A stretch of 64,000 bases of DNA. Origin: an uncultured Bacteroidales bacterium (lineage in GTDB: Bacteria; Bacteroidota; Bacteroidia; Bacteroidales; VadinHA17). The stretch is taken from contig CAVYYH010000011.1 in NCBI GenBank assembly GCA_963772705.1, positions 2,384-66,383 of the forward strand, in the 5' to 3' direction. How positions within the stretch are numbered: position 1 is the stretch's first letter; each line of letters begins with the position of its first letter. The notes below the pieces were generated by a model. That model made no database searches, was not told the origin of the DNA, and worked only from the letters and a program-made list of their open reading frames with translations. The translations under genes were made by a program, and so were the position numbers. Positions 1 through 17,359 of the stretch are shown here, piece by piece.

Positions 1-177
1 GCTCCTGCACACAAGACAGCTTTGTAATGGTTCTTGCACCCGGACACGCGCATCTGCCCGTAATATAAATTCAATATACCTTGACAGTTTTCTGGCCCCG
101 CTCAGGCGGGGTACCTGGACCCTGCCCGGATGCTGCGTCGGGTAATACAACCTCCCAATATTGCCGGGCCGTTAGGT
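1..177 (+). repeat. attC site, 3' portion (5' end cut by window edge)
   Basis: Near-identical to 763-853 plus 1027-1109. GC hairpin ccccgctcaggcgggg at 96-111. Ends with L'-like aatattgccgggccg and core GTTAGGT at 171-177. Confidence 0.7.
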
Positions 178-231
178 TTCAGGCAAGAACCACACGATTA
201 TAAAATTCTGTTATTTTAAAAAAGAAATCAT

Positions 232-672
232 ATGAGACATATTGCAATTATTATATGCTTAATATTCTTAATAGCATGCAATACCAGACCAAAACAACCT
301 GATAATTCTCCAATAAAAGCTCCAGAAGTTAGTGCATCAACAGATTCTATTGTACAATTTTTGCTTACCGCAGCTGCCTTAGATTTTTATAACCACCGTC
401 CCCCTGATCCTCTGCGATTCAGGGACGTGAGACTAGGGCACTTAACTGGATCAAATGGAGTAAGGAGGTATTTACTTTGTGGCCAGTTTCTCTCTGTGGA
501 GGAAAAAAACAAAGTTGAATGGATATCCTTCGTGACAATCAAGACAGATCCCTATGAACAATGGCTTGGTAATCAGGCTTATGCATATTGCAATGACACA
601 TCTGTCGTATGGGAGAATGTGAGTGATTTATCTTCTCTACTACAGATTAAATTAGATTCTTTGCGTAGATAG
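232..672 (+). CDS. hypothetical lipoprotein (cassette ORF)
   Basis: 146-aa ORF with a signal peptide and lipobox-like LIAC. Bounded by core GTTAGGT 171-177 and inverse core ACCTAAC 712-718. Confidence 0.6.
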   Translation: MRHIAIIICLIFLIACNTRPKQPDNSPIKAPEVSASTDSIVQFLLTAAALDFYNHRPPDPLRFRDVRLGHLTGSNGVRRYLLCGQFLSVEEKNKVEWISFVTIKTDPYEQWLGNQAYAYCNDTSVVWENVSDLSSLLQIKLDSLRR

Positions 673-711
673 TTTATAAAAACAATCTTGGAATTTAAAA
701 AGAGCCAGAAA

Positions 712-1109
712 ACCTAACACGGACGGTATAATTAATAAGCTCGTCACGGTTTTTGCTTTTGCTCCTGCACCCAAGACAGATTTGTAATGGTTCTTGCACC
801 CGGACACGCGCATCTGCCCGCAATTAAATTCTATACCTTGACAGTTTTCTGGCTTCGATCAACTTGTACCGCGACACTGCGCCAGTGCCCGCAACCAACT
901 TTGTAACCGGGGATAAGTTCGCGGCTCCGATCAAACTTGTACCGCGACACTCGTATAACTCACAAAACTTGTACCTGGATGGCAAAAACCGCGCCGTACT
1001 CTCCTCGCACCGTGACAGTTTTCTGGCCCCGCTGGCGCGGGGTACCAGGACTCTGCCCGGTGCTGTCGTCGGGTAACGCCCACTAAATTATACCGCCGGG
1101 CCGTTAGGT
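712..1109 (+). repeat. attC site, family A, about 398 bp (very long)
   Basis: R'' ACCTAAC 712-718 and R' GTTAGGT 1103-1109 are exact complements. L'' cacggacggtataatt faces L' aattataccgccgggccg with unpaired bases. Internal GC hairpin ccccgctggcgcgggg at 1027-1042. Confidence 0.75.
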
Positions 1110-1283
1110 TTAAGGCAGAGTCTTCTAATGACCATGAAAAAGCCCCCTTGAGAAAGAGATTGAATCATTAAATGTGTCAACGAAACTTCCTATGATTGGG
1201 TGGTTAGTAATAATATTTCAAGGTAAGCAAATACCCTATCTTTATAGTAACTTTGATTAGATTAACCTTCCAAAAATAAACTG

Positions 1284-1844
1284 ATGTGGATTGTAATTAT
1301 TTGCCTGGCCTACCTCTTTGGAATATCGGAATCCATACTTGCTTATGCCAGACGTTCAAAGAATAAGACTGTAAAAACCAGACGTGATAAAGGTTCGTTA
1401 ATAGCCCTTTATGTGGTATTCAGTATTAGCATGACGGCCGGTTTTATGCTGGCTGACTTCAGAACACGCACTGTATCTTATTACCTTACAGTATCTTGTG
1501 GACTGATCCTGTATTTACTTGGACTGATAATAAGGTGGACTGCCATTTTACAGCTTAAAAAAGCCTTTACAGTTGATGTTGCAATTAATCAGCAGCATGA
1601 GCTTAAAACCGATGGTATTTACAGTATAATCAGGCACCCGGCATACCTCGGACTTTGGCTTATCTTCATGGGACTGTCGGTTTCGTTGTACAGCATTTTA
1701 TCATTCATTTCAATTACAATTCCTGTTTTTCTAGTGATTTTGTACAGAATTAAAGTTGAGGAAAAGTTGCTGACTGAGGAATTTGGTGTTGAATATCAAA
1801 ATTATGCTAGGAATACGAGGAGACTGATTCCCTTTATATTTTAA
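1284..1844 (+). CDS. ICMT/phospholipid-methyltransferase-family membrane protein
   Basis: 186 aa, multi-TM. RHPAYLG motif followed by an EE..L region, typical of the isoprenylcysteine carboxyl methyltransferase superfamily. Confidence 0.65.
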   Translation: MWIVIICLAYLFGISESILAYARRSKNKTVKTRRDKGSLIALYVVFSISMTAGFMLADFRTRTVSYYLTVSCGLILYLLGLIIRWTAILQLKKAFTVDVAINQQHELKTDGIYSIIRHPAYLGLWLIFMGLSVSLYSILSFISITIPVFLVILYRIKVEEKLLTEEFGVEYQNYARNTRRLIPFIF

Positions 1845-1884
1845 TTCATTTGCATCTGGTAATCCTGATTTGAAACAGCCCTAA

Positions 1885-2143
1885 ACCTAACAGGTCGGTA
1901 TACGCAATTGGCTTCTGCACCGCGAGAACTCTCTGGCTAAAGAGGACCGTTAAGTACTCAGCGGTGCGGCCTGCCCCGGCTCCCGCCGGGGTACGGCGCG
2001 CCACCGTCCCGATGAATCGGGACGCCAACGCCACATTATTCGCCACTCACTACGGTTCGTGGCTCATGAGCTCGTCCCTGACATAGTTTCAGGCTAAAGT
2101 GTAGTTTTTTCGGCAGGATCCTCGGTTCCGCCGAACGTTATGG
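1885..2143 (+). repeat. attC site, family B, about 259 bp
   Basis: R'' ACCTAAC 1885-1891 followed by caggtcggtatacgcaatt. The 3' end is ggatcctcggttccgccgaacGTTATGG (2137-2143). GC hairpins at 1974-1991 and 2006-2023. Confidence 0.7.
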
Positions 2144-2760
2144 TGCATTTAAAAAAGACAGATATGAAAGATAAATTAGTGTTGAAAATTGGACTTATCC
2201 TCATTTGTATAAGTTTTAACTTATTTCAGAATAAAGCATTCTCTCAAGAGAAATACTTAATTGTACTTGATATTCAGAAATTTCCAAAAAAAAGCACACT
2301 ACTGGATAGTTCAGTTATGAAAATGATACAAAATGTAAATTCTTTGATAAGCCATTTCAATGCCGAGAATGTAATATATATTAAAGCAACAGGAAAGGCA
2401 ATAAGTATTACTTCAAAAGGATTTTCAATAGATACTTTGCCTGCCCCTGATTTTGATAGCACACTTAATATTGTGAGTAATAATATTTTTATCAAAATAG
2501 AAGGAGATGCATTTACCTCTGCAGAATTGATAAGTTTTCTGGAGAATAAAAAAGCAAAAGAGATTGTTTTGGTGGGTCTTATGGCAGAAAAATGTATTTA
2601 TAATACAGCTTTGGGTGGAAAAGACAAAGACTATGACATTACGATTGTACCCGAAGGGATTGTTGGTATGACACAAAAAAAGAAAGATAAAGCAATTGAA
2701 AAAATGAAAGTCAAAGGAATTAAATTTTTACCAATGTCAGCAATAATCAGCGCACCATAA
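2140..2760 (+). CDS. isochorismatase-family cysteine hydrolase (secreted)
   Basis: LIVLDIQ and EIVLVGLMAEKCI motifs. The likely true start is ATG 2164 (MKDKLV signal peptide). The stop TAA lies inside the next attC inverse core ccaTAAc. Confidence 0.6.
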   Translation: MVHLKKTDMKDKLVLKIGLILICISFNLFQNKAFSQEKYLIVLDIQKFPKKSTLLDSSVMKMIQNVNSLISHFNAENVIYIKATGKAISITSKGFSIDTLPAPDFDSTLNIVSNNIFIKIEGDAFTSAELISFLENKKAKEIVLVGLMAEKCIYNTALGGKDKDYDITIVPEGIVGMTQKKKDKAIEKMKVKGIKFLPMSAIISAP

Positions 2761-2886
2761 CACATGGTATAGTACATGCGGGTTTCAGAGGTTTTCGAAG
2801 GTTTATAGTACGTAAAAAAGGTAAGTGTAAACTGATAGGAAATCGCTTCGTAATCCCGCACGACACCATACCATCAGCCGTTAGGT
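2755..2886 (+). repeat. attC site, canonical length (132 bp)
   Basis: R'' CCATAAC 2755-2761 and R' GTTAGGT 2880-2886. Inner inverted repeat acatggtatagtacatgcggg / cccgcacgacaccataccat with mismatches and bulges. Confidence 0.75.
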
Positions 2887-2920
2887 GCAAGGCAATGCTA
2901 AACCCCAAGCAACTGATAAA

Positions 2921-3373
2921 ATGAGATCTGCCACAATAACTTGTTTCATTATTCTATTGATTAACTTGAACCTGAAAGGTCAAACCAAGATCATTACAGG
3001 CAGAGTAATAGATGAAGATTTTGAAACCATACCATTAACTATGATTCAAAACTCTGATTCAATTCTTATCGGACAGACAGATCTGGACGGTTACTTTAAT
3101 ATTGAAATCCCATTAGAAACTGATACTCTATTTTTCAGGTTTATTGCAATGGAATGGAAAACAATCACACTAACTCCTGATTGCGATACTATTGACGTAA
3201 TCCTTATGCATGACGCTATTTATGATTTTATGACAGCTACTAAGATTGATAGACTCCGTATGAAAAGATTCAAACAGTTGCCTGAGTTGCATCAAAAAGC
3301 CTATGAAAAAGGACTGTTTACCACTGTGCAACCTTGTTATGAGCAAGATTTTGTTCCAATAAAAAAAGATTAA
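2921..3373 (+). CDS. carboxypeptidase-regulatory-like (CarboxypepD_reg) domain protein
   Basis: Signal peptide, then GRVIDEDFETIP...DLDGYFNIEIP. The ORF-track start 2885 is a GTG inside the attC core, so ATG 2921 is preferred. Confidence 0.5.
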   Translation: MRSATITCFIILLINLNLKGQTKIITGRVIDEDFETIPLTMIQNSDSILIGQTDLDGYFNIEIPLETDTLFFRFIAMEWKTITLTPDCDTIDVILMHDAIYDFMTATKIDRLRMKRFKQLPELHQKAYEKGLFTTVQPCYEQDFVPIKKD

Positions 3374-3411
3374 ATGCCTTTAAGCAACAGAGAGAAAATG
3401 AATTGCCCAGC

Positions 3412-3678
3412 ACCTAACAGGTCGGTATATGCAATTAACTCCCCCTTCTTAGCATGGCTGGTTGAGCTCAACCTCAGAAGATGCAAAGAATATTTAACCC
3501 AATAGTGGCTGAGGCCTCGGTTGGCTTTCCGTAATGCGAGAATAATGTATTAACCGCATAACCCTGCATCGCATCACGAGTGCGAAAACACCCCGACCTC
3601 TTCGCGTTCGGCACGGGGCACGGCGCGCCACTGTCCGCCAGATGGCGGACCAACTGCACATATTGTCGAACGCTATTT
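3412..3678 (+). repeat. attC site, family B, about 267 bp, degenerate 3' core
   Basis: R'' ACCTAAC 3412-3418 plus caggtcggtatatgcaatt. Shares the module ggcacggcgcgccac + hairpin (3633-3650) with the 1885 element. The 3' end tcgaacGCTATTT is a degenerate core. Confidence 0.6.
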
Positions 3679-3685
3679 GCAATGC

Positions 3686-4590
3686 ATGACAAATACACAT
3701 ATTTACAAGCTCATTTATATGGACAATTACTTGACAGTCTTTAGAAATGAATCGGGAAAACAATTAGTCTTTGAGGCTTATGATTCAGTCATTAACTCAA
3801 TAGGAATTCAATTTGAAGAAATCTATCTGCCCACAAGACTAGGGGAAACTCATATATTAGTCTCGGGTGATAGAAAAAATCCTCCATTGCTACTGGTACA
3901 TGCCTATTATGCATCAGCTGCGTCTTGGTATAAAAACCTGAAGTCGTTATCTGAAAGATTCCGTGTTTATAATGTTGATATAATTGGTGACCCAAATAAA
4001 AGCAAACCGATAAAATTAATACGGCAACTAGATGACTTCCTCGACTGGTTTGAAGATATAATGCAAGGGTTGAACCTTGAAAATGCTGATTTCATTGGCA
4101 ATTCTGTTGGAGCCTTTCATATCACAAATTTTGCAATACATTCGCCAAATCGTGTAAAAAAGATGGTATTGATAGGTCCAGCTGCAACATTTAGACAAAT
4201 TATGCCATTTTATATTAAATACATTTCCTGGTGGAATTACCGGTTGGTCTTTTTTAGTTAATCATGCAATTAAATGGGTAGAAAATGGAGTTGAATTTGA
4301 TCATGAATTCAGAAAGCTATTCTTTTTACTGTTAAAATATGGGAAAGCTACAAATCAAGTATTTCCTGCGGTATTTACAGATCATCGATTTAAAAAAAAT
4401 TAAAACTGCCCACACTACTTATTTATGGAGATAAAGAAAATATCTACAATTATAATTTGGCAATAATCAGAGCAAAAGAGCATATTGAAAACTTAAGAGT
4501 AAGGATTATTAAAGAATGGTAATCATATTACTGCAGCGACAAACTGACGAAATGATAAATAAAGAACTATTGGATTTTCTTAAGGATTAA
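3686..4590 (+). pseudogene. alpha/beta hydrolase, multiple frameshifts
   Basis: The N-terminal 194-aa ORF (HAYYASAASW, GNSVGAF nucleophile-elbow-like) continues in other frames (NHAIKWVENG..., KLPTLLIYGDKENIY..., EMINKELLDFLKD). The breaks fall at T6 and A8 homopolymers. Confidence 0.6.
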
Positions 4591-4601
4591 AATGGCAAAG
4601 C

Positions 4602-4921
4602 ACATAACACGGACAGTATAATTAATGGGTTTGTCATGCTTTTTGCGGGGATTTCTGCCCTTAACTGGGGAAAGGTACTCAACACGCACCTCGATCGCCC
4701 CACTGCCCTTTAAACAGTTTCAGCGATCTGACTATTTCGCTATACCTATCAAATCTGTATCGCGAAACACGTAAATTTCTCACAGTTTTGTACCATGATT
4801 CAAAAAAGCACGCAATACCTTTCTCACATCACCATGACAGGCCGCTCGGTATCGCACCATGACAAAACACATTGGAGCTCGTCGGGGAACGCCCAATAAT
4901 TATATCGCCGGGCCGTTATGT
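4602..4921 (+). repeat. attC site, family A, about 320 bp
   Basis: R'' ACATAAC 4602-4608 and R' GTTATGT 4915-4921 are exact complements. L'' cacggacagtataatt faces L' aattatatcgccgggccg. The centre is homologous to 856-1011. Confidence 0.75.
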
Positions 4922-5133
4922 TTAAGCCTTAAAACCACTGATTACGAGCCAATTTCGTCTTGACAACCTAGGCCTAAGCATAACTCCTAGAAAAGTAGAT
5001 TATCTTTGATTAACTTAACAATTGTGTAAATAGTTATAAACATTGGCCATAGCATCAATATAAATTACTTCCATGTACACAGAGTATTATAATTCTAGCC
5101 TTTGCGTATTTATATTGATTCTTTGAGTTCTAT

Positions 5134-5622
5134 ATGAATGCGAGAATAAAAAAGAAGAGTAGCATTGTTAAATCCAGTGACAAAGGAAGCATTCGCTTTC
5201 TCTTTACATTAATTCAGATTGGCTGCTTGCTTTCATTCGGTATTGGCGCAACAAAAGTAGGTATGATTAATGATTGGAATATCTTATTTATCATTGGAGC
5301 AGTACTGATAATATTTGGAATTATAATAAGATTAAACTCAATCATGACACTTAGGCGACAATATACCTATACTGTAACAAGGATTGAGAATCATGCGCTA
5401 ATTGAATCAGGATTATATAAGACTATTAGGCATCCTGGATATCTGGGACTTGTAATTATTTTTCTCGGGATTTCAACTGCATTATCAAATTGGTTGTCAA
5501 TCATCTTGATGATCATTCCGGTCATCATTGGAATTATGAATCGAATACGAGTTGAAGAAAGTTTTCTAATCGAACAAATGGGTCAAAAATATACTGATTA
5601 TCAAAGCGGACAAAGAAGTTAA
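5134..5622 (+). CDS. ICMT/phospholipid-methyltransferase-family membrane protein
   Basis: 162 aa, multi-TM, with RHPGYLG and RVEESFL motifs. Paralogue of 1284-1844. Confidence 0.65.
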   Translation: MNARIKKKSSIVKSSDKGSIRFLFTLIQIGCLLSFGIGATKVGMINDWNILFIIGAVLIIFGIIIRLNSIMTLRRQYTYTVTRIENHALIESGLYKTIRHPGYLGLVIIFLGISTALSNWLSIILMIIPVIIGIMNRIRVEESFLIEQMGQKYTDYQSGQRS

Positions 5623-5705
5623 TTCCAAATATTTTTTAGCAAATAGGAAGTGCCAACATTAGGGTGAAGTATATAATCAATAAAATACTTTTATAACCTA
5701 AAAAA

Positions 5706-6056
5706 ATGAAACCCACAGTATTAATGAACATCGTCCGTTGGTCGGCTCGCATTATCGGAACATTAATAGTTGCATTCACTTTGTTAATTGGCATTGGTGA
5801 AATGCTTGAGGGGCGTAGTAGGCCTGCTTCTGAACCCAATATCTATAATATTATAACCTTTGTGGTCTGGGGAACAGGACTTTCCGGATTAATATTAGCA
5901 TTATGGAAAGAAGGTTTGGGAGGAATAGTCTCATTGCTTTGTTTTATAATCTTTAATATTCTTGCTGCGATGAATCCTACTCCCGGATCCAGATACATGT
6001 ATATACTTCTGTTTTTATGCTCCCATCATTATTATATTTACTTTACTGGTGGTTAA
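5706..6056 (+). CDS. small integral membrane protein (3' end possibly frameshifted)
   Basis: 116 aa with 3-4 hydrophobic helices. An alternative frame after the T5 run near 6010 continues as LPSLLYLLYWWLKRNSF to about 6110. Confidence 0.45.
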   Translation: MKPTVLMNIVRWSARIIGTLIVAFTLLIGIGEMLEGRSRPASEPNIYNIITFVVWGTGLSGLILALWKEGLGGIVSLLCFIIFNILAAMNPTPGSRYMYILLFLCSHHYYIYFTGG

Positions 6057-6196
6057 AAAGGAATTCTTTCATTAAAATTTCAGAAAACTCAACCACCGGG
6101 CTGTGATGGGCAGATTTAATCGTGCAAACTCCGAAAGGCAACCATGTCACTCGACAACCAGGAGTATCTGGAGTAATTATATTTTATAAAACCAGC

Positions 6197-6442
6197 CCAT
6201 AACACGGACAATATTGGTAAGTTGTCAATCCTACGCCAAAGCAATGGAGGGCAAAGACGGCAAAAAGTGCGCCCCCGTCTAACCCTGCTCATCGGGGCAC
6301 AGCATACCCTCCTTCGTACTCCGAAGCTTTAGCGAAGTAGTACTTTGCACCGTGCTCCGCCAGCTGCCAGCTAAAGTACCGGGATTAGTGCACGATTTGG
6401 CGTCAGGTAACACCTACTATTTTTATTGCCGGGCCGTTAGCG
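6197..6442 (+). repeat. attC site, family C 5' end with A-like 3' end, about 246 bp
   Basis: R'' CCATAAC 6197-6203 plus cacggacaatattggtaagttg. The 3' end is ttttattgccgggccGTTAGCG (6436-6442). GC hairpin ccccgtctaaccctgctcatcgggg. Confidence 0.65.
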
Positions 6443-6515
6443 TTCATGCTAAGACTCCCTACAAATATCAGGATACACCAAGAACCTCTGAATAATTCTT
6501 TAAAAGAACTGTTTT

Positions 6516-7271
6516 ATGACAAAAAACTTCTTAATCTTAACATTTCTGAGCTTTGGGCTAATGGCTGCTGCTCAAACTAAACCAATCATAGAATGGGTAT
6601 CAATTCCTGCCGGAACCTTTACAATGGGTAGTCCCGAAAGTGAGGTTGACAGAAGTAAAAATGAAACTCAGCATCAGGTAACGCTAAGTGCTTTTATGAT
6701 GAGTAAATACGAGATAACCTTTGAACAATACGATTTATTTTGCGATGCCACTGGCAGAAAAAAACCTGGTGATGAAGGCTGGGGTAGAAACAGCCATCCG
6801 GTAATAAATGTAAGTTGGGACGACGCCACTGCCTTTGCCAATTGGATGGGTTGCCGCTTACCTACCGAATCCGAGTGGGAATATGCAGCGCGCGGAGGGA
6901 CTTCCACTCCGTTTGATACAGGCAATAATCTTACTACTTCTCAGGCAAATTATGACGGGAATAATCCCTATAACAGCAATGCAAAAGGAGAATACAGAAA
7001 AAGAACTTTGCCGGTAGGAAGCTTTGAATCAAATGAATATGGTTTATTCGATATGCATGGTAATGTTTGGGAATGGTGCAGTGATTTGTATGGACCTTAC
7101 TCCACCTATCCACAAATAGACCCTCAAGGAGCAACATCAGGTAAAGCCCGTGTACGGCGTGGTGGCGGTTGGAATGACTTTGCGAGGCGTTGCCGGTCAT
7201 CATACCGCGACAACGTCTCTCCTGGATATTCCGACTATTCTATAGGTATCCGTCTTGTCAAATCTAAATAG
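6516..7271 (+). CDS. formylglycine-generating-enzyme (SUMF1/FGE-sulfatase) domain protein, secreted
   Basis: HPVINVSWDDATAFANWMG, RLPTESEWEYAARGG, GNVWEWCSD and RVRRGGGWN motifs. Has a signal peptide. Confidence 0.8.
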   Translation: MTKNFLILTFLSFGLMAAAQTKPIIEWVSIPAGTFTMGSPESEVDRSKNETQHQVTLSAFMMSKYEITFEQYDLFCDATGRKKPGDEGWGRNSHPVINVSWDDATAFANWMGCRLPTESEWEYAARGGTSTPFDTGNNLTTSQANYDGNNPYNSNAKGEYRKRTLPVGSFESNEYGLFDMHGNVWEWCSDLYGPYSTYPQIDPQGATSGKARVRRGGGWNDFARRCRSSYRDNVSPGYSDYSIGIRLVKSK

Positions 7272-7297
7272 ACAACTATCTAAATATCAGCACTAAA

Positions 7298-7379
7298 TGC
7301 TGACAGGTGAGTATTTGCAATTGTCTTCTGTGCCGCGAAAATTTAGAAGCAACCATGCACATACCGGCGAAAATTAGCC
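7298..7379 (+). repeat. degenerate attC (family B-like, about 82 bp)
   Basis: tgctgacaggtgagtatttgcaattg resembles acctaacaggtcggtatacgcaattg. The 3' side gcacataccggcgaaaATTAGCC has a mutated core. Confidence 0.4.
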
Positions 7380-7417
7380 GCAAGCTTTAGATTTCACAAC
7401 CAAATGAATCAATAATC

Positions 7418-7795
7418 ATGAAAAAAATGAGGCAAGATTTTGAACCTCCTGAAGCAATTGTCAAATGGGGATGGAAATTCCACCATATTGGAATTCCTAC
7501 TACTGAAGAAATGCCTGATGAGGATTATCTTCCACAGTTTAAGTTTTATGCTTCTGGCTTTCCATCATCACCATTCGGTATAGAATGGATGCGATTTGAA
7601 AAAGACTCGCCAATTAACTCGTTAATTCAAAAAGTGCCTCATGTTGCTTTTGAAGTGGAGAATCTTGATTTGGAACTTAAAATACACCAGTTTAATATCT
7701 TAACTAAAACAAATAGTCCAGGTAATGGAGTGAGGGTTGCCATGATTGAACACAATGGAGCACCGATTGAATTAATTGAATTCGTAAAAGAATAA
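7418..7795 (+). CDS. small VOC/glyoxalase-like protein
   Basis: 125 aa with HHIGIPT and HVAFEV patterns reminiscent of the VOC fold. Weak call. Confidence 0.4.
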   Translation: MKKMRQDFEPPEAIVKWGWKFHHIGIPTTEEMPDEDYLPQFKFYASGFPSSPFGIEWMRFEKDSPINSLIQKVPHVAFEVENLDLELKIHQFNILTKTNSPGNGVRVAMIEHNGAPIELIEFVKE

Positions 7796-7804
7796 ACAGC
7801 CGAT

Positions 7805-7828
7805 GGCTAACAGGCCGGTATGTTAGGC
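7805..7828 (+). repeat. 24-bp mini attC-like hairpin (inverse core plus half L-box fused to core)
   Basis: GGCTAAC-aggccggtat-GTTAGGC: a family B 5' start abutting a core heptamer directly. Confidence 0.35.
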
Positions 7829-7894
7829 TTCAGCGATGGCAGAGTGCCATAAATTCAGTTAAAGAAGTATTCACGTTGGTAAAGGAGATTACAA

Positions 7895-8830: not shown

Positions 8831-8905
8831 TCCTGACACGATAATTTCTGCTCTTCGTAAGGGACAATACCCTCGCGCGACAGAAAATTTGCCATCCCGT
8901 CCTCA
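8831..8905 (+). repeat. degenerate attC-like site (about 75 bp)
   Basis: TCCTGAC, then ataatttctg ... cagaaaattt inverted repeat, then ccatcccGTCCTCA. The cores deviate from consensus. Confidence 0.4.
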
Positions 8906-8990
8906 TATGCCAAATTCATTAATCTCAATCTGATAAATTTGTTTTACTTTTCTAAAAATAGATAAAACGCATCCATATAAATCAATCATT

Positions 8991-9926: not shown

Positions 9927-9967
9927 ACTGATAGCATGTCACATAAAATTGAATTTGAATTATTTGT

Positions 9968-9993
9968 GCTAACACTGACAAAATGGGTAATTG
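9968..9993 (+). repeat. attC 5'-half remnant (family C) fused to the start of the next ORF
   Basis: tgctaacactgacaaaatgggtaattg compares with tgctaacactgacaatatgggtaagttg at 14061. The ATG of ORF 9983 lies inside it. Confidence 0.45.
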
Positions 9994-11719
9994 GATATCG
10001 TTGACACTTATTCTGACATTGTTACAGGGTTGTGCCCGGCAACAATCTTACTATGATTTTAAAACCTCATTCGAAAAGGATTTTAAGGATGAGCTGCATA
10101 AAAACGATGTAAGTAACGCCGCCTATGCAGTGTTTACCGATGATAGTGTCATTTTTCAGGATGCTTTTAGCAATAATGGCACGAAGGTCGATGGCAATTC
10201 GCCTTTTTTAATAGGGTCCGTTACAAAGGTTTTTACAGCAGTTGCAGTGATGCAACTCTACGAACAAGGAAAAATCGACATCGACAAGCCGGTTTCGGAC
10301 TATGTGCCAGACTTTGCAATCAATCAACGTTTCCCCGACTCAGAACCTATTACCATTCGGGCGGTCTTAACACATCATGCAGGCATTCCCTCTGACTACT
10401 ACCTGCACAAATTCAGCAAAAAACAGCACGATTTCAATGAGATATTGCCTTACCTCAATTCGCAATACACCTGTTATCCTGTTGGCGAAATATGGGCATA
10501 CTCCAATCTGGGATATGCCCTGCTGGGCATACTGATTGAGCGTGCAGGCGGACTGAAATACGAAGATTACGTTGTCCGGAACATATTTACCCCATTGGGA
10601 ATGAAGAATTCCGGTTTTTATTCCGATTACGAAAAACAAAAACATTTAGCTATAGCATACTGTTCTGGTAAGAAGACATTCGAATATCCATTGCTGGATA
10701 AGCCAGCCGGGGCCATCTATTCAACAGTCAATGATATGGTTCTTTTTTGCAGGGCATTTATCGACAAAAAAGAACGTCTCTTAAAAAATGCCACACTTGA
10801 AGATATGTACGTGATTCAAAACCGCGATAATCTTCTGGATATGGACCATCGGATGGCTATTTGCTTTAACTATAAAAATAAGGCTTATGAACTGGGCCGG
10901 GTATTAGAACACGGAGGGGCTACCATGTACCATCGGGCACAAATGGTTATTGCACCCGATGCCGGGCTTGCTGCCATAATGCTCTCCGACTCACCCACCG
11001 GAAAAGACAACGCATGGAAACTTGACGAACAGCTGATGGTTGAATACTGCAAGACAACACAACTTGTGATTGATAAGGCTTTGAATCCCGAGAAAATAAC
11101 CCCGCTCACCCCTATCAGCAGTAAAAACCTGGCGCAATACGCAGGTAATTACGCCATGCCCGGTATGGTGTGCAAGTTCGAATGGAAAAACGGGTATCTG
11201 TCACCTACCATCAACGGGCAGAATTTTTACCTGGCGCCACATGATTCCAATTCATTTGTCCCTGCCAAACGCTTTCTGGGCATGATGCTCAAATCGAAGA
11301 AAATGTATTTCCTTCTTGAAGAAATAAATGGTGAGAAACATTTTATCCAGGCGATGCCATGGGGAGGCTTAAACATAATCGGTACCCAATTCAATCCGGA
11401 ACCAATTCCTCAGATATATCAAAACCGGACCGGAAATTACACCATAATGAATACAGATGATGAAGATGTACCATCGCTCGAAAAGGTCAGGATTTGTATA
11501 GAAGATGGGGTTCTGTTATTGAAATATTGTTTTAACCCTGAAATGTCGTTTGGTCAGGATGCAAGTCTTGCATTAGATATTTCTAATGATTCTGTTTCGT
11601 TTGTAATGGGCTATGGGCGCGGCGGAGGCGAGAGCGTGGTCTTTGATAAAAATGGTGACACTTTCCGGTATATGGGACTTAAGCTTAAAAGAACTGTGGA
11701 TTCGTCCATAAAAGAGTAA
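9983..11719 (+). CDS. serine hydrolase (beta-lactamase/transpeptidase-like fold) lipoprotein
   Basis: SxxK motif GSVTKVFTA, YSNLGY, lipobox LLQGC. 578 aa. Confidence 0.75.
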   Translation: MGNWISLTLILTLLQGCARQQSYYDFKTSFEKDFKDELHKNDVSNAAYAVFTDDSVIFQDAFSNNGTKVDGNSPFLIGSVTKVFTAVAVMQLYEQGKIDIDKPVSDYVPDFAINQRFPDSEPITIRAVLTHHAGIPSDYYLHKFSKKQHDFNEILPYLNSQYTCYPVGEIWAYSNLGYALLGILIERAGGLKYEDYVVRNIFTPLGMKNSGFYSDYEKQKHLAIAYCSGKKTFEYPLLDKPAGAIYSTVNDMVLFCRAFIDKKERLLKNATLEDMYVIQNRDNLLDMDHRMAICFNYKNKAYELGRVLEHGGATMYHRAQMVIAPDAGLAAIMLSDSPTGKDNAWKLDEQLMVEYCKTTQLVIDKALNPEKITPLTPISSKNLAQYAGNYAMPGMVCKFEWKNGYLSPTINGQNFYLAPHDSNSFVPAKRFLGMMLKSKKMYFLLEEINGEKHFIQAMPWGGLNIIGTQFNPEPIPQIYQNRTGNYTIMNTDDEDVPSLEKVRICIEDGVLLLKYCFNPEMSFGQDASLALDISNDSVSFVMGYGRGGGESVVFDKNGDTFRYMGLKLKRTVDSSIKE

Positions 11720-11800
11720 TAAGCAAACAATTACCCATTTAAAATTTATTCAGACATATAAGGCACGAACACATGACAAGCATAATAAACTAAACAAACT

Positions 11801-12553
11801 ATGAGAACGATTTTGACAATTCTGATGGCTCTGAGCTTATTTTCAACTTCATTAAATGCACAATTTCTTACTACTCCTGCTAAGGATAATACACTTGTTG
11901 TTGAAGGTGTCGCAATTTTGAAAGAAATACCTAAGAATATTTTTGTCTTCATTACAGTTAAATCTGAATCCAAGGATTACTCTGAATGTCAGGATATGCT
12001 GTTAGAAAGGATGGAGATTGTTAAATCCTCAATACTTAAACAAAGTATCAGCAAAGACCTATTAAAAACGACTGAAATTTCAATAAACGAAAACAAAGAA
12101 TATATCGATGGCAAGCAGGAAAAAATAGGTTTTTCCGGGACTATTACCCTAACAATAGAGACTTTGTTCTCTCCTGAATTTGCTAACAAGCTTTTAACTG
12201 CACTGAAGATTGACCTTGTTGAGTATAGTATAAAATTCAAATTATCGGAAGATCAGAAAACCAAATTAAGGCATGCTGCAATTACCATGGCAGTTGAAGA
12301 TGCAAAAGAGAAGGCCATCTTGCTGGCAAATTCATCAAATATTAAGTTGAATAGAATCAATTCCGTTACCTATTTAGATGAAAGGTATGTTTTCTATCAA
12401 GACAGTGATATTGTTAGAGAAGAGACACTACCCAGGCAGGAAGTATTCATGATGGCAGAAGCTTCGGGTAACTCAACAAGTATTGATTTCAATCCTAAGG
12501 AAATAGGAATATACAAATCAGTACAGATTGAGTGGAAAATTGATAAAAAATAA
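11801..12553 (+). CDS. SIMPL/DUF541-like periplasmic protein
   Basis: 250 aa with a signal peptide. The VVEGVAILKEIP... layout resembles the SIMPL family. Moderate call. Confidence 0.5.
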   Translation: MRTILTILMALSLFSTSLNAQFLTTPAKDNTLVVEGVAILKEIPKNIFVFITVKSESKDYSECQDMLLERMEIVKSSILKQSISKDLLKTTEISINENKEYIDGKQEKIGFSGTITLTIETLFSPEFANKLLTALKIDLVEYSIKFKLSEDQKTKLRHAAITMAVEDAKEKAILLANSSNIKLNRINSVTYLDERYVFYQDSDIVREETLPRQEVFMMAEASGNSTSIDFNPKEIGIYKSVQIEWKIDKK

Positions 12554-12561
12554 AGAACAAA

Positions 12562-12619
12562 CCATAACACGGACGGTAGTGTTAATAAACTTTCACTAAC
12601 TCTTACCGCCGGGTCGTCA
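12562..12619 (+). repeat. attC site, family A, short form (58 bp)
   Basis: CCATAAC plus cacggacggtagtgttaat ... cttaccgccggGTCGTCA. The 3' core is degenerate. Confidence 0.6.
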
Positions 12620-12656
12620 CACACAATCCCAGACTACAAACAGAAACATCAATATT

Positions 12657-12875
12657 ATGAAGAACAAACTTAACCAGGAAGTTCTGGATTCAATGACTAA
12701 AAATCCTTCTAATTGGAGAGGATTATTATATTTCAATCGTAAAGATCCCAGATTAGTAGTCCAAAAACTATTTCCATCTTTAGGCTGGACTTTTAATTTT
12801 GCAAATCCTCTAACTTATTTGACAATAATACTTTTGATTCTTATCGTTGTGGTTGTTACAATCATAACCAAATAG
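12657..12875 (+). CDS. small membrane protein
   Basis: 72 aa with NWRGLLYFNRKDPRLVV followed by one TM helix. Confidence 0.4.
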   Translation: MKNKLNQEVLDSMTKNPSNWRGLLYFNRKDPRLVVQKLFPSLGWTFNFANPLTYLTIILLILIVVVVTIITK

Positions 12876-12905
12876 CGTCAAATCGAAATTGTATAAACAA
12901 ACTGA

Positions 12906-13033
12906 GCATAACATGACGGTATATGCAATTAACTCCCCCTCCGGTGGCGGGGTTCGTTGAGCTCGTCCATGACAGAGTTACAGGTTAGAGAGTAGATTTT
13001 TCGGCAGGATCCTCGGTTCCGCTGAACGTATGC
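12906..13033 (+). repeat. attC site, family B mosaic (128 bp)
   Basis: GCATAAC 12906-12912. The 5' part matches 3420-3450 (ggtatatgcaattaactccccct). The 3' part matches 2065-2143 (gagctcgtcc.tgaca.agtt.cagg...ttttcggcaggatcctcggttccgc.gaacgt). Confidence 0.7.
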
Positions 13034-13126
13034 AAACAAACTAGCGAAATCTATTCTAGAATTCTATATTGAATTCTCAATGACTACATTTTAAAATTTG
13101 AGTTTAATCCTATTCCTTAATCTCAC

Positions 13127-14054
13127 ATGAAAAAAAACTACCCGCCTGAAGGAGAACCGACAGTTGATCTAATTAGCAATCCTTCCAGATATGCTCAAAA
13201 GCCAATACGGGGATTATTAATAATCTTTGCTGCACTCTCAGTGTGTATGTTGATCGTCGGCTTTTTCCTTTATGGTATTTTAAAGCTCCCGCAGGAATTT
13301 TCAGACAGTAATGCTTTATCGACCGTGATTCTGTTTACAACATGCAACATTATTGCATATCTTTTTGTGCCATATTTGTTGCGGATTCCAAATGGAAAGC
13401 GTACGTTCAGAGAATATCTAAGTGATATAGGCCTTACACGCATCCAACCATTTTCACGACTACTAATTCTAACAATTTCTTGTTTGCTTATACTTATTTT
13501 ATGCCAGGGAAGCGGTTCTTTGGTATATAGATTGACGGAGGGTAAACCTTTAACGGCTGACTTTATTAGAACGGTCTTTGACTTATCCTTAGCTCTACCA
13601 CCGAAATCAATCCTATTATTTACCGTATTTTATTCAATGTTCGAAGAAGTATGCTTTCGAGGTGTTTTTCTTACTATGCTTTTACACAAGTATTCTCAAT
13701 TTTAATGCAATTCTTTATTCAGCACTTGCTTTTGGAGTATTTCATATTTTCGCTGTATTTGCTGGAGGAGAGTTGGTTACTACTATTGCTCAGGTTGTGT
13801 GGGCATTCATTTTCGGGATATTTTATGGTTACATCTTCGTTAAAACCGGAAGCTTATGGCCATCAATGATAATTCACTGGCTAAGTAATGTATTTCAGTC
13901 CACTCTTACGGTTTATTGGTTGTCAGCACCTATATTTGAGAGAGCATTATTTGGAATTATTTTTGGTTATGGTCTGGCAGCCTTTTTTTCGATATTTTGG
14001 GTTCGTTTTTATTCATCAAAATGGCTTAAACCTCAAAAACAAGGACTGAATTAA
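13127..14054 (+). pseudogene. CPBP-family intramembrane glutamic endopeptidase (CAAX protease-like), one frameshift
   Basis: Motif 1 EEVCFRG is in frame A. Motifs 2 and 3 (FGVFH and HWLSN) are in frame B. The shift lies near the T4 run at about 13695. Confidence 0.7.
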
Positions 14055-14060
14055 TACGTT

Positions 14061-14241
14061 TGCTAACACTGACAATATGGGTAAGTTGTCTCCCACATTG
14101 CGGGACAGGTTGTCTCACTTTTTGCCCCGCCTTAGGGCGGGATCAGGTTCGTCTCCGCCAATGTCTGGCTCCTCCCGATTCTGTCATTAAGTGTCAGAAC
14201 TAAATGCAGGGCCCCCCTCCTATACTGCCGGTCCTTTATGC
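14061..14241 (+). repeat. attC site, family C, about 181 bp
   Basis: TGCTAAC plus cactgacaatatgggtaagttg ... cctatactgccggtccTTTATGC. GC hairpin cccgccttagggcggg. Confidence 0.6.
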
Positions 14242-14267
14242 TTAAAACCCAACAATAGTGCACTAGA

Positions 14268-15332
14268 ATGAATCTCCTTGACCTCGGATTTAATGATGAG
14301 CTCGCTGCCTGTCTGAGAGAAAATCAACTTACTGACTTTTCAATCGGCAGAGTGACTCAGGAACACCGGGAAAGATATGTCGTCTCAGATGGTGAAAATG
14401 AATATACTGCTGAAATTACCGGCAACTTAAGATTTGCTGCAAAATCAAGAACTGATTTTCCTGCTGTCGGTGACTGGGTGGCAATGACAACCTATGACTC
14501 CGATCAGGCAATTATTCATAAAATACTTCCCAGGAAATCAGTACTTGAAAGACAGGCTGTTGGCAAATTTGGCGAGACTCAGATCATTTCTGCAAATATT
14601 GACGTTGCGTTTATTGTTCAGGCAATAAACAATAATTTCAGTATAAACCGGCTTGAAAGATACCTGACTATATGTTATTCAGCTAACATTGAGCCAGTTC
14701 TGGTAATTAGCAAGATTGATTTATCCACCGAAAAAGATATTCAGGAAGCAATCAGCACCCTTGAAAAAAGAGACAAAAAAGTCAAGTATATCCTGCTCAG
14801 TAACATGACCCTGAAAGGACTTGACCAGATATTGGATTTTATACAAAAAGGAAAAACATATTGTGTAGTTGGCTCCTCGGGAGTTGGCAAATCAACCTTG
14901 ATCAATAACCTGTTAAAAAAGAACGTATTAAAAACAGGTCAAATAAGTCTGAGCACAAACAAGGGAAGACATACCACTGATCATCGTGAATTATTTGTTC
15001 TGGAAAATGGCGGTATCATAATTGACACCCCGGGAATGAAGGAACTGGGCATGACAGATAATGCGGAGGGGATTATAACAACATTTCAGGAGATCGTTAA
15101 CATCGCGTTAAATTGTAAATTTCCTGACTGTAAACACATTAATGAAACCGGATGTGCTGTAATTGATGCACTGAACAATGGGACTATCGACAAAGATTCC
15201 TATGATAACTATCAAAAAATTCAGAAAGAACAGGAAAGATTTCAGACTACTGTTTCAGAAAAACGAAAAAAAGACAAAGCCTTCGGAAAGATGATTAAGA
15301 ACTATTTTAAAGACAATAAAAACAAGTTCTAA
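14268..15332 (+). CDS. rsgA: ribosome small-subunit-dependent GTPase A
   Basis: Circularly permuted GTPase motif order: SKID, GSSGVGKSTLIN, DTPG. C-terminal zinc knuckle CKFPDCKHINETGCAV. Confidence 0.85.
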   Translation: MNLLDLGFNDELAACLRENQLTDFSIGRVTQEHRERYVVSDGENEYTAEITGNLRFAAKSRTDFPAVGDWVAMTTYDSDQAIIHKILPRKSVLERQAVGKFGETQIISANIDVAFIVQAINNNFSINRLERYLTICYSANIEPVLVISKIDLSTEKDIQEAISTLEKRDKKVKYILLSNMTLKGLDQILDFIQKGKTYCVVGSSGVGKSTLINNLLKKNVLKTGQISLSTNKGRHTTDHRELFVLENGGIIIDTPGMKELGMTDNAEGIITTFQEIVNIALNCKFPDCKHINETGCAVIDALNNGTIDKDSYDNYQKIQKEQERFQTTVSEKRKKDKAFGKMIKNYFKDNKNKF

Positions 15333-15552
15333 GCATAACACGGACAATATGGGCAAGTTGCTTCCCCCTTCGACGGACAAAATGTCACTATTTTTGAATG
15401 AATATGAGCCTCTTGCCATGGCGCGTCAGAAGCCCACGCACCCGTACATACACCATTTCCGCCAGCCGTGTATTTCTTCACAATAATGTTAAGTCTTAAC
15501 CACGGCAGTTGTTACTACGGAACATTAAACCTCATCCCTGCGAACGTTATTG
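15333..15552 (+). repeat. attC site, family C, about 220 bp
   Basis: GCATAAC starts 1 nt after the rsgA stop and is followed by cacggacaatatgggcaagttg. The 3' end is ccctgcgaacGTTATTG at 15546-15552. Confidence 0.65.
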
Positions 15553-15590
15553 TCAATACCAAAAAGACCGTAGTATAAAAAATCAACAAT

Positions 15591-15986
15591 ATGAAGAACA
15601 TTAAAAAGACAGTTTTACCAATTCTGATTGCGACAATCTGGATCAGCGTTTCTGAATTTGTTCGCAACTCCTTCTTGCTACACCACTTTTGGACTGAGCA
15701 CTATGAAACATTAGGGCTGACTTTTCCCGAACAACCAATTAATGGAGCTGTGTGGGGAATATGGTCTCTTTGTTTTGCCATAGCCATTTACATTTTTAGC
15801 AAAAAATATACTTTGCTTCAAACTGCTATTTTATCATGGTTTATAGGATTCGTATTTATGTGGTTGGTAGTAGGAAACTTAGGGGTACTTCCGTTTGGTA
15901 TTTTGCTTTTTGCAATTCCGTTAAGCTTATTGGAAGCTTTTGTAGCAACATACATTATATTTAAACTAACCATTCAAAAAAATTGA
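15591..15986 (+). CDS. small 4-TM membrane protein
   Basis: 131-aa hydrophobic ORF with no recognisable motif. Confidence 0.5.
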   Translation: MKNIKKTVLPILIATIWISVSEFVRNSFLLHHFWTEHYETLGLTFPEQPINGAVWGIWSLCFAIAIYIFSKKYTLLQTAILSWFIGFVFMWLVVGNLGVLPFGILLFAIPLSLLEAFVATYIIFKLTIQKN

Positions 15987-15991
15987 AAGCA

Positions 15992-16095
15992 CCTTTAACC
16001 ATTTTAATATTAATGGGCTTTAAAGGTAGCTCCGGGCTTAAGGGACAGTTAAGTGATTCTGATCCGTTGCTCCACATGCATGCAAGCCGTTACAG
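15992..16095 (+). repeat. attC-like site (about 104 bp)
   Basis: cctttaac at the 5' end is complementary in 7 of 8 positions to GTTACAGG at 16089-16096. Contains an internal hairpin cctttaacca...tgggctttaaagg. Confidence 0.45.
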
Positions 16096-16126
16096 GGCAT
16101 AGCCACTCTAATAAATACCATCGCAT

Positions 16127-16543
16127 ATGACTGACTCAAAACAAGAGGTTTCAAGGGTATTGGATGCACATTGGTCTGCCTTAAAAGCCAAAGACGCTGA
16201 TGCTGTTATTGCTTTACTGTCTGAAGATTTTCTGTCATGTGGAAGTGACCCAAAAGAATTCTGGAACAAGGCAGAAATGTATAATACTGTTAAACAGATG
16301 TTAGCCAACACTGAACTTATAATAGATATCACTGTCGACAAACGGGAAATACGCATTTCAAAAGATGGTAATTCAGCAATCGCCTTTGAACAGATGTTTC
16401 TGACACCTTTCAGCCAGAAGATACCAGTCCGAACAGTTTATCATTTCGTAAAAGAGGATGATTCCTGGTTAATCGATTTTACAAGTACTGGTTTTATTCC
16501 GAACAATGATGATATAGAAAAACTAAATAGGGCATTAGATTAA
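16127..16543 (+). CDS. SnoaL-like/NTF2-fold (DUF4440-like) protein
   Basis: 138 aa. The HWSALKAKDADAVIALLSEDF start and the size are typical of this fold. Confidence 0.55.
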   Translation: MTDSKQEVSRVLDAHWSALKAKDADAVIALLSEDFLSCGSDPKEFWNKAEMYNTVKQMLANTELIIDITVDKREIRISKDGNSAIAFEQMFLTPFSQKIPVRTVYHFVKEDDSWLIDFTSTGFIPNNDDIEKLNRALD

Positions 16544-16675
16544 AAAATAAGCCATTACCAATCCATCATGAAAAACCAATAATATGGATTATATGGCCGG
16601 GAATTCTGAGTATCCAGGATTTAAATTAGTCTGAATTATTAAGTCATATATTTGAAATTTAATTCCTTATGAGCA

Positions 16676-17148
16676 ATGAAACCCATGAATTACATTCTGT
16701 CTTTGCTTTTCATAATGACAGCATTAAATATCCAGGCCCAACCTGATACAATACAGGTTAAAAAAAGCTGGGTACTGTTTTCCAGGTAAACGGGACCAAT
16801 GTTACCCCGGACAGAATGCTTGAGATCATGGAAATAAATCCTGCAGCCTATGCGGAAATGAAAATTGCAAAAACAAACTATGTTGTAAGTATGGCCTTCG
16901 GCGCCGGAGGGTTAGTGCTTGGTTACTTTATTGGCGCATCTGCTTCAAGTGGCGATCCAAACTGGACTCTTCTTGGTGTGAGTGCAGGAATGATTGTTGT
17001 TTCCATTCCTTTTGGAATAAGCTATACAAAACATGCCAGAAATGCAGTGAGTATCTATAACAGTGAAATCAGAAACTCGTACAGAAACATCCCCGAAATG
17101 ACATTAAATATTGCTCCATACGGAGCAGGATTGAAGCTGCGCTTTTAA
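16676..17148 (+). pseudogene. hypothetical secreted/membrane protein, frameshift in an A7 run
   Basis: MKPMNYILSLLFIMTALNIQAQ...VKK stops. The reading frame continues in frame 1 (LGTVFQVNGTNVTPDRMLEIMEINP...) after the A7 run at 16760-16766. Confidence 0.45.
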
Positions 17149-17359
17149 AATAGGTCTGATCAATACCGTCCGCATCTTACCCGAAACATCAGCTGGTAGC
17201 TTATAGCACTTTGAATGATCTGTTAAATTCATCATGAATTCAGAGGTTTGCGAATGTTATTGGCCAGTTAAAGATTCAGGTGCAAACTGACAGTAACCAG
17301 GGGAAAATAACTTTGCCGGAGAATTTTTATTTTGGTAAACATAAATAAGTTCAGTTTCT

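Follow-up and report, generated by a model that had tools for sequence, protein, structure and literature searches.

The DNA analysed here (the window) is a 64,000-nucleotide stretch of contig CAVYYH010000011.1, positions 2,384 to 66,383, from an uncultured Bacteroidales bacterium. Its first 17,262 positions carry an array of small genes separated by elements that resemble attC, the recombination sites of integrons. Over the first 17.3 kb or so, almost every open reading frame (ORF) lies on the + strand, where there are about 20, and each is followed by a GC-rich element. Mean GC is 0.51 for the elements and 0.37 (0.374) for the cassette ORFs; over the whole array it is 0.386 versus 0.463 for the rest of the window, and the array ends at about position 17,262. 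A first-pass annotation of the same sequence had read this region as an array of at least 14 attC-bounded cassettes in a single orientation. That positions 1-17262 are a real integron-type array of mobile gene cassettes bounded by attC-like sites is supported by the one orientation of the sites, their R/L-box helix, a preference for bottom-strand folding, covariation, a cassette rule centred on G|TT and the reshuffling of cassettes between genomes.

Sites and cassette genes of the array

The window holds 13-14 elements of 60-398 nt, more than 200 nt long in 7 of the 13 complete ones, and about 14 is a fair count, with several elements degenerate. All 16 of the boundary heptamers reported in the first-pass annotation were found where it had placed them, and the inverted repeats that it quoted were located at 718 and 1086. 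It had put the inverse core heptamer (R'') 0-30 nt from the stop codon of each gene. The start of R'' is indeed close to the stop in most cases, but it ranges from -6 to +40 nt in 10 of 11 cases and is at +140 in one. The 5' motif TAACAN{3,5}RRTAT occurs 12 times in the window versus 1.69 expected, a number reached in 0 of 100 shuffles; 10 of these copies fall inside the array (715-15350) and all 12 are on the + strand. The family-specific site motifs were likewise seen on the + strand only. For comparison, related loci L001-L006 were obtained through an exact-protein look-up of one cassette product, an ICMT-type methyltransferase, and at least 120 more contigs through a metagenome scan with a 20-mer from one of the site families, family B. 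Exact-protein look-ups of five window proteins gave no match for four of them.

Three families of sites, all on the + strand, can be distinguished in the window. Family A has the form YATAACACGGACRRTAT ... TATnGCCGGGCCGTTAG. Family B has the form CTAACAGGTCGGTATAYGCAATT ... CCGCCGAACGTTA, and many of its members are extended at the 3' end by a further module of about 95 nt. Family C (132 nt) is represented at 2755-2886. The first element, E0 (1-177), is only the 3' part of a site, cut by the window edge as had been noted, with R' GTTAGGT at 171-177 and 95% identity to the interior of the next site. This next site, E1 (712-1109), belongs to family A and at 398 nt is the longest, with R'' ACCTAAC, R' GTTAGGT and 21 terminal pairs. 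It contains internal repeats, CTTGTACCGCGACAC three times and GACAGTTTTCTGGC three times, which suggest that long sites grow via internal duplication. The family B site E2 (1885-2143; 259 nt) carries the 3' extension module, opens with ACCTAAC and closes with GTTATGG at 2137, and lacks 140 nt in the middle compared with its counterpart in L001, the closest relative. Its R' is complementary to R'' CCATAAC of the family C site E3 (2755-2886; 132 nt), whose inner motif GGGTTTCAG.GGTTT.CGAAG is also present in the first attC of another related locus, L136. E4 (3412-3678) is a family B site with a degenerate 3' end, GCTATTT at 3672. E5 (4602-4921; 320 nt) and E6 (6197-6442; 246 nt) are family A sites with heptamers ACATAAC/GTTATGT and CCATAAC/GTTAGCG, respectively, the former with 21 terminal pairs.

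The remaining sites are shorter or show more decay. E7 (7298-7379) is a short family B site of 82 nt in which R' is mutated to ATTAGCC (GTTAGCC in L001), and E8 (7805-7864) is a truncated site whose R'' GGCTAAC agrees with the start of its cassette. At 9967-9990 only the first 24 nt of a site remain, TGCTAACACTGACAAAATGGGTAA, which share 96% identity with the beginning of E11 (14061). This remnant runs into the start codon of a 578-aa beta-lactamase-family gene, the rest of the site being missing; a full site with a different 5' leader stands upstream of the homologous gene in L001. E9 (12562-12622) is a short family A site of 61 nt (CCATAAC/GTCACAC), and E10 (12906-13034) is a family B site with an internal deletion, 129 nt long, with R' GTATGCA. 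Two family A-like sites follow, E11 (14061-14241; 181 nt; TGCTAAC and a degenerate R' TTTATGC) and E12 (15333-15552; 220 nt; GCATAAC/GTTATTG). E13 (15993-16095; CTTTAAC ... GTTACAG) is a weak candidate to which folding gives no support. The array closes with a degenerate element at 17150-17262 that ends in GTTATTG (17256) and resembles the interior of E3. Degeneration or truncation is seen at the 3' end of E4, in R' of E7, E10 and E11, in E8 and in the last two elements. Some of the cassette genes are disrupted as well.

The cassette genes, all on the + strand, are as diverse as the first-pass annotation had proposed for a collection of unrelated small genes. A Pfam scan identified two ICMT/PEMT methyltransferases, an isochorismatase, hydrolases, an FGE-sulfatase, and members of the MBL-fold, beta-lactamase, SIMPL, RsgA and SnoaL families. 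The array begins with an ORF of 146 aa without a Pfam family (232-672). The ICMT/PEMT-type methyltransferase gene at 1284-1844 encodes a protein that is found, identical, in six other contigs with different neighbours, and it is followed by an isochorismatase-family gene (2140-2760), the order of the two being swapped relative to L001. Next come a CarboxypepD_reg-like gene (2885-3373), an alpha/beta-hydrolase gene broken by frameshifts or stops (3677-4590), a two-gene cassette (5134-6056) of an ICMT/PEMT-like gene (5134-5622) and a DUF7670 gene (5706-6056), an FGE-sulfatase (SUMF1-like) gene (6516-7271), and an ORF of 125 aa (7418-7795) with a 92% identical cassette in L001/L002. The interval from 7.9 to 12.5 kb contains four genes with no intact site between them and the remnant at 9967 as the single trace of one (7926-12553; a frameshifted MBL-fold gene, DUF6624/TPR, the 578-aa beta-lactamase-family gene and SIMPL). 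Beyond it lie a DUF5808 gene (12657-12875), a membrane protein gene (13127-14054) split by a frameshift into 13127-13705 and 13662-14054, an RsgA-type GTPase gene (14268-15332), an ORF of 131 aa (15591-15986) with an 80% identical cassette in L001, and the last cassettes (16127-17148), where a SnoaL-like gene (16127-16543) precedes one for a small membrane protein (16816-17148). It is odd for a mobile cassette to carry an RsgA-type GTPase, a protein of ribosome biogenesis; in the related locus L112 (431-1513) a homologue occupies the first cassette position behind the recombinase gene. The L001 array also carries toxin-antitoxin genes. None of the SUKH/SMI1, Imm or Tdi families was found among the window cargo by Pfam, a scan in which unannotated ORFs could still be immunity proteins.

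Outside the array, an ICMT-like gene at 19014-19505 shares 62 nt at 71% identity with the ICMT cassette (1284-1844); it may represent a resident paralogue from which a cassette gene differs only in being mobile. Just past the array, positions 20311-21813 match a subtype B tannase model with 661 bits (cut-off 300), and the right part of the window otherwise carries accessory-looking metabolic and transport genes. Neither the right flank of the window nor the left flank of L001 matched any other locus collected. For a protein encoded in the flank, the best named relatives are 'Bacteroidales bacterium' proteins with 66-69% identity, in agreement with a Bacteroidales host.

The array was also compared with the definition of a CALIN (cluster of attC sites lacking integron integrases), here taken as a minimum of two attC sites that share a strand, are spaced by less than 4 kb and have no integron integrase in their vicinity. 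It has 13-14 + strand sites and zero tyrosine recombinase genes in 64 kb, with its left side cut by the window edge, and agrees with that definition. Intact sites are at most about 4.7 kb apart (7864-12562), an interval that includes the remnant at 9967.

Preferred bottom-strand folding and the crossover point

The sites have the anatomy R''-L''...L'-R', an imperfect palindrome able to fold, in which an R box (YTAAC/GTTAR), an asymmetric unpaired spacer and an L box (GGTAT/ATACC) enclose a variable region that is long and branched, with extrahelical bases. When folded with DNA parameters, E1, E3, E5, E6 and E9 close their ends on each other in the order R box, short asymmetric loop, L box. This end closure persists even across 250-400 nt, and for long sites the more stable fold is that of the bottom strand (-74.2 versus -59.3 kcal/mol for the top strand of E1). 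The earlier expectation that bottom strands would fold into R/L-box hairpins was thus borne out for these five sites, but not for the family B sites with the 3' extension.

The related arrays provided a much larger set of sites. A count over 137 sequences found 361 copies of the 5' motif on the + strand versus 51 on the - strand, and for the 3' motif 333 versus 65. Among 281 sites from the window and its relatives, 172 measure 241-245 nt (mode 243, median 244, range 62-640). Classical attC sites span 57-141 nt and the default maximum of IntegronFinder is 200 nt, a range exceeded both in the window (60-398 nt) and in its relatives (up to 640 nt).

For the 243-nt family, 151 copies were aligned, with a median pairwise identity of 82%. 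Consensus folding without constraints recovered the inner hairpins and missed the R/L closing helix, which was then specified and its pairs counted. The resulting consensus has 56 pairs, with a closing stem of about 24 bp that contains one extrahelical base, on the '' arm, and three inner stems; the spacers between the R and L boxes are 5 nt versus 7 nt. Over all copies the 56 consensus pairs are paired in 96.9% of instances on the bottom strand versus 89.5% on the top strand. Compensatory double changes occur at 11 pairs (for example CG 75 / TA 73, and AT 101 / GC 48). Controls with shifted partners gave 34-47% pairing and 0-3 covarying pairs. At two positions the top strand has A.C in 150/151 and 149/151 copies, which on the bottom strand are T.G wobbles, and the bottom strand is the more stable in 151/151 copies of this family, as it also was in 7/7 copies. 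This shows selection in favour of bottom-strand folding; the wobbles and stabilities indicate that the folded bottom DNA strand is favoured and structure in the sense transcript disfavoured.

Conserved hairpins with compensatory changes, placed directly after ORFs, might also be expected of elements that act at the level of RNA, as structured 3' untranslated regions, terminators or small RNAs by which each gene would be insulated or regulated. The conserved wobbles, however, pair only on the bottom strand, antisense to the genes, and such a role would leave the cassette rule and the reshuffling described below unexplained. No Rfam family matched the sites at gathering thresholds, although Rfam holds no attC model and this result says little. 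We consider an RNA-level explanation of the elements highly improbable, and the sites may still have a secondary role in transcription.

Cumulative GC skew climbs across the window. A minor inference is that the + strand would be the leading strand, which would put the bottom strands of the sites on the leading-strand template, the arrangement reported for large chromosomal integrons.

The point of exchange was examined through the pairing of site ends. The last six bases of an integron attC (TTRRRY) belong to the next cassette, and R'' is therefore expected to match the R' of the preceding site. Over 165 adjacent pairs from the window and its relatives, the outer triplet of R'' is the complement of the preceding R' in 78% and of its own R' in 11%, versus 6.6% in shuffled pairs. 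A hand count within the window gave 7 of 10 testable cases for the preceding R' and 2 of 10 for the same element's own R'. The first-pass annotation had described the two heptamers as complementary within an element, which is correct for those two; the general rule is complementarity to the R' of the preceding element. That R' is the start of the same cassette, and its match to R'' is the signature of a crossover at G|TT. The cassette boundary accordingly falls at the G|TT of R', with the last six bases of each site going to the next cassette.

Comparison between genomes places breakpoints at the same position. The window and L001-L003 have six cassettes in common, at 80-97% identity, with differing neighbours, and the ICMT and isochorismatase cassettes (95-97% identical) stand in opposite order in the window and L001. 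Similarity begins and stops exactly at G|TTAGGT, even between upstream sites of different families. Upstream of the ICMT cassette, for example, is a family A site in the window versus a family C site in L001, and the break is at G|TT. Site-specific exchange at G|TT can produce both the cassette rule and these breakpoints, whereas homologous recombination between repeats cannot.

These observations bear directly on a reading of the elements as dispersed REP/BIME or MITE-like repeats between which homologous recombination, rather than site-specific exchange, altered the order of the genes. With their length and a similarity of 80% inside a family, the elements would be good substrates for such recombination, and E2 can be read as a hybrid or internally deleted copy of the L001 sites. 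Against this stand the strict single orientation, the position after stop codons, the relation of R'' to the preceding R', which is beyond the reach of homologous recombination, the breaks between different families, and the occurrence outside arrays of one exact 23-mer copy in 185,579 genomes. We give the dispersed-repeat reading very little weight. The 23-mer, from the 3' module of family B, had its sole exact match among these species-representative genomes in L007 (CACYHJ010000532.1, 2190 nt), a contig of a rumen 'Ruminococcaceae' metagenome-assembled genome that is probably a mis-binned Bacteroidales fragment.

Recombinases at the head of related arrays

No recombinase gene or remnant was found in the 64-kb window by tblastn with IntI1 and XerD as queries, in keeping with the first-pass annotation, which had seen no integrase. 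Searches with IntI1, a query that scored 799 bits against NF011946, detected no IntI in the window or in the 126 related loci listed, about 0.5 Mb in all. Among the related loci, the IntI1 and XerD queries matched in L033, L094 and L112 only. The L033 match (4288-6356) is a different tyrosine recombinase of 301 aa that lies inside the array in the opposite orientation and is paired with a 388-aa ORF, which from its N-terminal sequence we take to be an IS91-family transposase; the pair looks like a mobile element inserted into the array. L094 has an Xer-like pair adjoining another gene, presumably for an IS256-type transposase judging from its N-terminal sequence. The array starts in L107, L045 and L061, all metagenome contigs, have ordinary genes and no recombinase upstream.

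L112 has a family B site with the exact 20-mer, and the sequence starts within a tyrosine recombinase gene, of which it holds the 3' end, co-oriented with the cassettes. Relatives of this recombinase, about 375-400 aa in length, number more than 7,900 proteins at E < 1e-40. Their hosts are Bacteroidota, for example Mangrovibacterium, Draconibacterium, Maribellus and Mariniphaga, and fragments also come from records named Ignavibacteriaceae and Caldithrix. A conserved attI-like junction, CACnnAC|GTTAnnn, follows the recombinase stop codon by 38-375 nt in 7 of 8 genomic contexts. Relatives thus possess an attI-like site, at the 3' end of the recombinase gene and not at its 5' end. The order of recombinase gene, CACnnAC|GTTAnnn and cassettes with attC-like sites was seen in L112, L128, L136 and L137, and in all four the R'' of the first cassette is complementary to the attI-like junction. 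L137, on a 3.57-Mb contig, has seven successive cassettes with sites of 132-133 nt and perfect complementarity of R'' to the cassette start, so that R'' matches the preceding R' in 7 of 7 cases. The three site families of the window have counterparts in these recombinase-linked arrays: family A resembles L128, family B matches L112 and family C resembles L136. The contigs of L130/L131, L134 and L135 end within about 1.3 kb after the recombinase gene, as would be expected ahead of a repeat array.

Several other features of these loci may be recorded. L136, on a 5.86-Mb contig, has three group II intron reverse transcriptase genes (RVT_1 + GIIM) within its array at 13525-19961, one on the + strand and two on the - strand, a situation reminiscent of classical integrons, where attC sites are targets of group IIC introns. 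At L132/L133 (10001-11182) a recombinase 59% identical to that of L128 has no clear CACnnAC|GTTA junction after it; downstream lies an AraC-family gene, in opposite orientation, and after it two genes for aldo-keto reductases, SnoaL_4 and a HigB toxin-antitoxin pair. The locus might represent an array in decay or a different employment of the enzyme. Internally deleted or truncated members of the recombinase family are common (P0022 at L129:10001-10555, P0003, P0044 and P0102), one example having its N-terminal domain fused straight to the last 110 aa, and decay of the recombinase seems to be common. The L129 copy adjoins a tRNA gene, presumably tRNA-Asn as judged by eye.

Alignment of 33 family members with IntI1 and XerD showed the catalytic residues RKHRHY to be kept in 33/33. 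The 31+11 residues that IntI1 has between the beta-hairpin region and the HxLRH box are absent in 33/33, and an extra N-terminal region of about 100 aa is present in all 33. The family shares 36% identity with IntI1 and 27% with XerD. The integron integrase model TIGR02249 gave 211-222 bits versus a cut-off of 265, in two pieces that skip model positions 181-231, while full-length members scored 230-239 bits with the NCBIfam XerA model NF040815 (cut-off 220). The core-binding domain is Phage_int_SAM_4. Based upon the profile and an AlphaFold model (pLDDT 84), the nearest solved structures are archaeal XerA (4a8e, 5hxy) and then Vibrio IntI4. The N-terminal domain is confidently predicted in that model as a small alpha/beta fold and has no Pfam match. 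The IntI-specific domain (intI_Cterm) that marks integron recombinases was found neither in the window nor in the relatives examined, and the recombinase is not an IntI insofar as the insertion that defines one is missing. Recombinases without the IntI domain near attC sites were previously described as not being IntI and as never lying beside three or more sites (Cury et al. 2016, PMC4889954); the family described here differs in that it heads arrays of at least seven sites.

A canonical IntI could nevertheless lie to the left of the window or elsewhere in the genome, which would make the window a CALIN or part of a sedentary chromosomal integron. The anatomy of the sites and the position of the crossover agree with integrons, complete integrons have been reported in the Bacteroidetes/Chlorobi group, and the sequences covered here begin at the left edge of the window. 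Such an array is nevertheless unlikely in our judgement, given the loci without any IntI, the lack of the insertion in every recombinase that heads a related array, and the length of the sites, most of which exceed the default limit of IntegronFinder (users raise it to 300 nt). Related arrays are headed by a co-oriented recombinase without the IntI-specific domain, and a classical IntI in divergent orientation on the left is an improbable partner for the window array.

Interpretation and comparison with known systems

Site anatomy, strand asymmetry, covariation, crossover position and reshuffling are observed in these arrays, as is the adjacency of recombinase and attI-like site in relatives. 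Our preferred reading, which we hold to be probable, is that positions 1-17262 are the distal part of a chromosomal Bacteroidales cassette array whose recombinase most likely belongs to the Bacteroidota family of about 390 aa. That family includes the recombinase of rAID (recombinase-associated acquired interbacterial defence) arrays and is not classical IntI. A cassette would then consist of TTANNN, one or more ORFs and an attC-like site ending in G. The bottom strand of the site would fold as in integrons, as a single strand in vivo, and the tyrosine recombinase would cut it between the G and TT of R'. Excision of cassettes, as circles, would proceed via attC x attC recombination, and incoming ones would be inserted at the attI-like junction beside the recombinase gene, with transcription presumably reading through from the recombinase side. 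The window array would lie far downstream of its recombinase or be served in trans.

Several observations weigh against this reading. No recombinase or remnant is present in the window, nor in L001, the array of which apparently starts beside ordinary genes, and the window array may thus be one that has no recombinase of its own and is served in trans. Recombinase-linked arrays with cassettes number only four (L112, L128, L136 and L137), four other recombinase loci ending in contig breaks (L129, L130/L131, L134/L135) or being without an obvious array (L132/L133). Family B sites with the 3' extension leave their ends unclosed in the minimum-energy fold. The window cargo has no immunity genes recognisable in the Pfam scan, and the recombinase family is only about 43% identical to the rAID-type one. 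A classical IntI may also be present elsewhere in these genomes.

A wider proposal is that Bacteroidota carry a widespread, general-purpose gene-capture system parallel to integrons, of which rAID is the gut branch. Its recombinase, without the I2/additional domain and with a new N-terminal domain, would use folded bottom strands at G|TT in sites of about 50 to more than 600 nt. We regard the evidence for this proposal as evenly balanced. The prevailing view of integrons is that the additional domain of IntI is needed to recognise a folded attC, and surveys use that domain together with sites of at most 200 nt. By these definitions such arrays are missed or tallied as orphan clusters, and Bacteroidota are listed as nearly integron-free. 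If the wider proposal is true, single-strand attC recombination needs no IntI-defining domain, and the system would be a natural intermediate in, or an independent solution to, the transition from Xer to IntI. The variant in the window strains two assumptions about integron-type recombination, one on the IntI domain and one on site size. Its sites indicate that recombination sites can span several hundred bases with a conserved branched structure, and practical search rules for such arrays follow from the features of site and recombinase.

Compared with integrons, the array shares a one-way arrangement of promoter-less-looking cassettes (PMC4889954). It shares the R''-L''...L'-R' order with an extrahelical base, sequence signs of bottom-strand folding and the crossover at G|TT. 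Its attC-like sites are more alike within arrays than between them, some cassettes are degraded, and toxin-antitoxin cassettes and group II introns (L136) occur in relatives. It differs in the recombinase of its relatives, which is without the additional domain of IntI and falls short of the cut-off for integron integrases, in the co-orientation of that recombinase with the cassettes and the attI-like site past its 3' end, and in sites far longer than classical attC. Integrons with a co-oriented integrase exist, for example in Treponema denticola, but as far as is known those integrases keep the IntI additional domain. Strict membership among integrons is therefore not supported, on account of the recombinase domain in relatives and the length of the sites. 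The literature searched described no integron system without the IntI domain under integron vocabulary. The Xer recombinases (XerC/D and archaeal XerA) provide the best profile and fold matches (4a8e, 5hxy) and likewise have a catalytic domain without the IntI insertion. Xer, however, resolves chromosome dimers at one double-stranded site (dif), whereas the family here has an N-terminal domain of about 100 aa and heads cassette arrays.

The closest resemblance is to rAID. The rAID-1 arrays of gut Bacteroidales have a 5' recombinase, short low-GC genes and intergenic repeats, and were called "reminiscent of integrons" (Ross et al. 2019, bioRxiv 10.1101/471110; PMC12247911). They were defined by a XerD-like recombinase more than 44% identical to B. 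fragilis BF9343_RS08045 and at least two co-directional genes with GC of at most 41% (Ross et al. 2019). A translated plasmid search found relatives of the present recombinase in gut Bacteroidales, among them a Bacteroides ovatus plasmid recombinase that is 43% identical along its entire length, N-terminal domain included. Behind it are 16 co-oriented genes with SMI1/KNR4, Imm26, PoNe/PoNi and Tdi1 immunity annotations, an arrangement that agrees with the one published for rAID-1. The 5' tyrosine recombinase of arrays related to the window is thus of the same family, the 43% referring to the B. ovatus protein and not to the B. fragilis reference. The window also has about 20 co-directional ORFs with a mean GC of 0.374, under the 41% limit, and conserved intergenic repeats (families A, B and C). 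The match of R'' to the preceding R' holds at the three successive junctions checked in the B. ovatus array.

The differences from rAID concern sites, cargo, habitat and the recombinase. The B. ovatus sites are hairpins of about 45-55 nt ending in ATTA, whereas those of the window are 60-398 nt long and end in GTTA. The cargo of rAID is orphan immunity genes and that of the window is general. Hosts of rAID are gut bacteria, while the present arrays are environmental (digester, wetland and sediment metagenomes, judged by record names), and the window is without a recombinase. A 2025 preprint still called the mechanism of rAID biogenesis an open question, and no mechanistic reading in terms of G|TT, bottom-strand folding and an attI-like site was found for rAID in the literature searched. 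The present comparison gives the rAID family a concrete, testable mechanism, with crossover at G|TT, folding of the bottom strand and an attI-like site past the recombinase gene, and extends it to environmental Bacteroidales with general adaptive cargo. The relationship means that the kind of system is already known and that the window holds an environmental variant with very long branched sites. Most likely, the array belongs to an environmental and divergent relative of rAID in which giant attC sites go together with general cargo.

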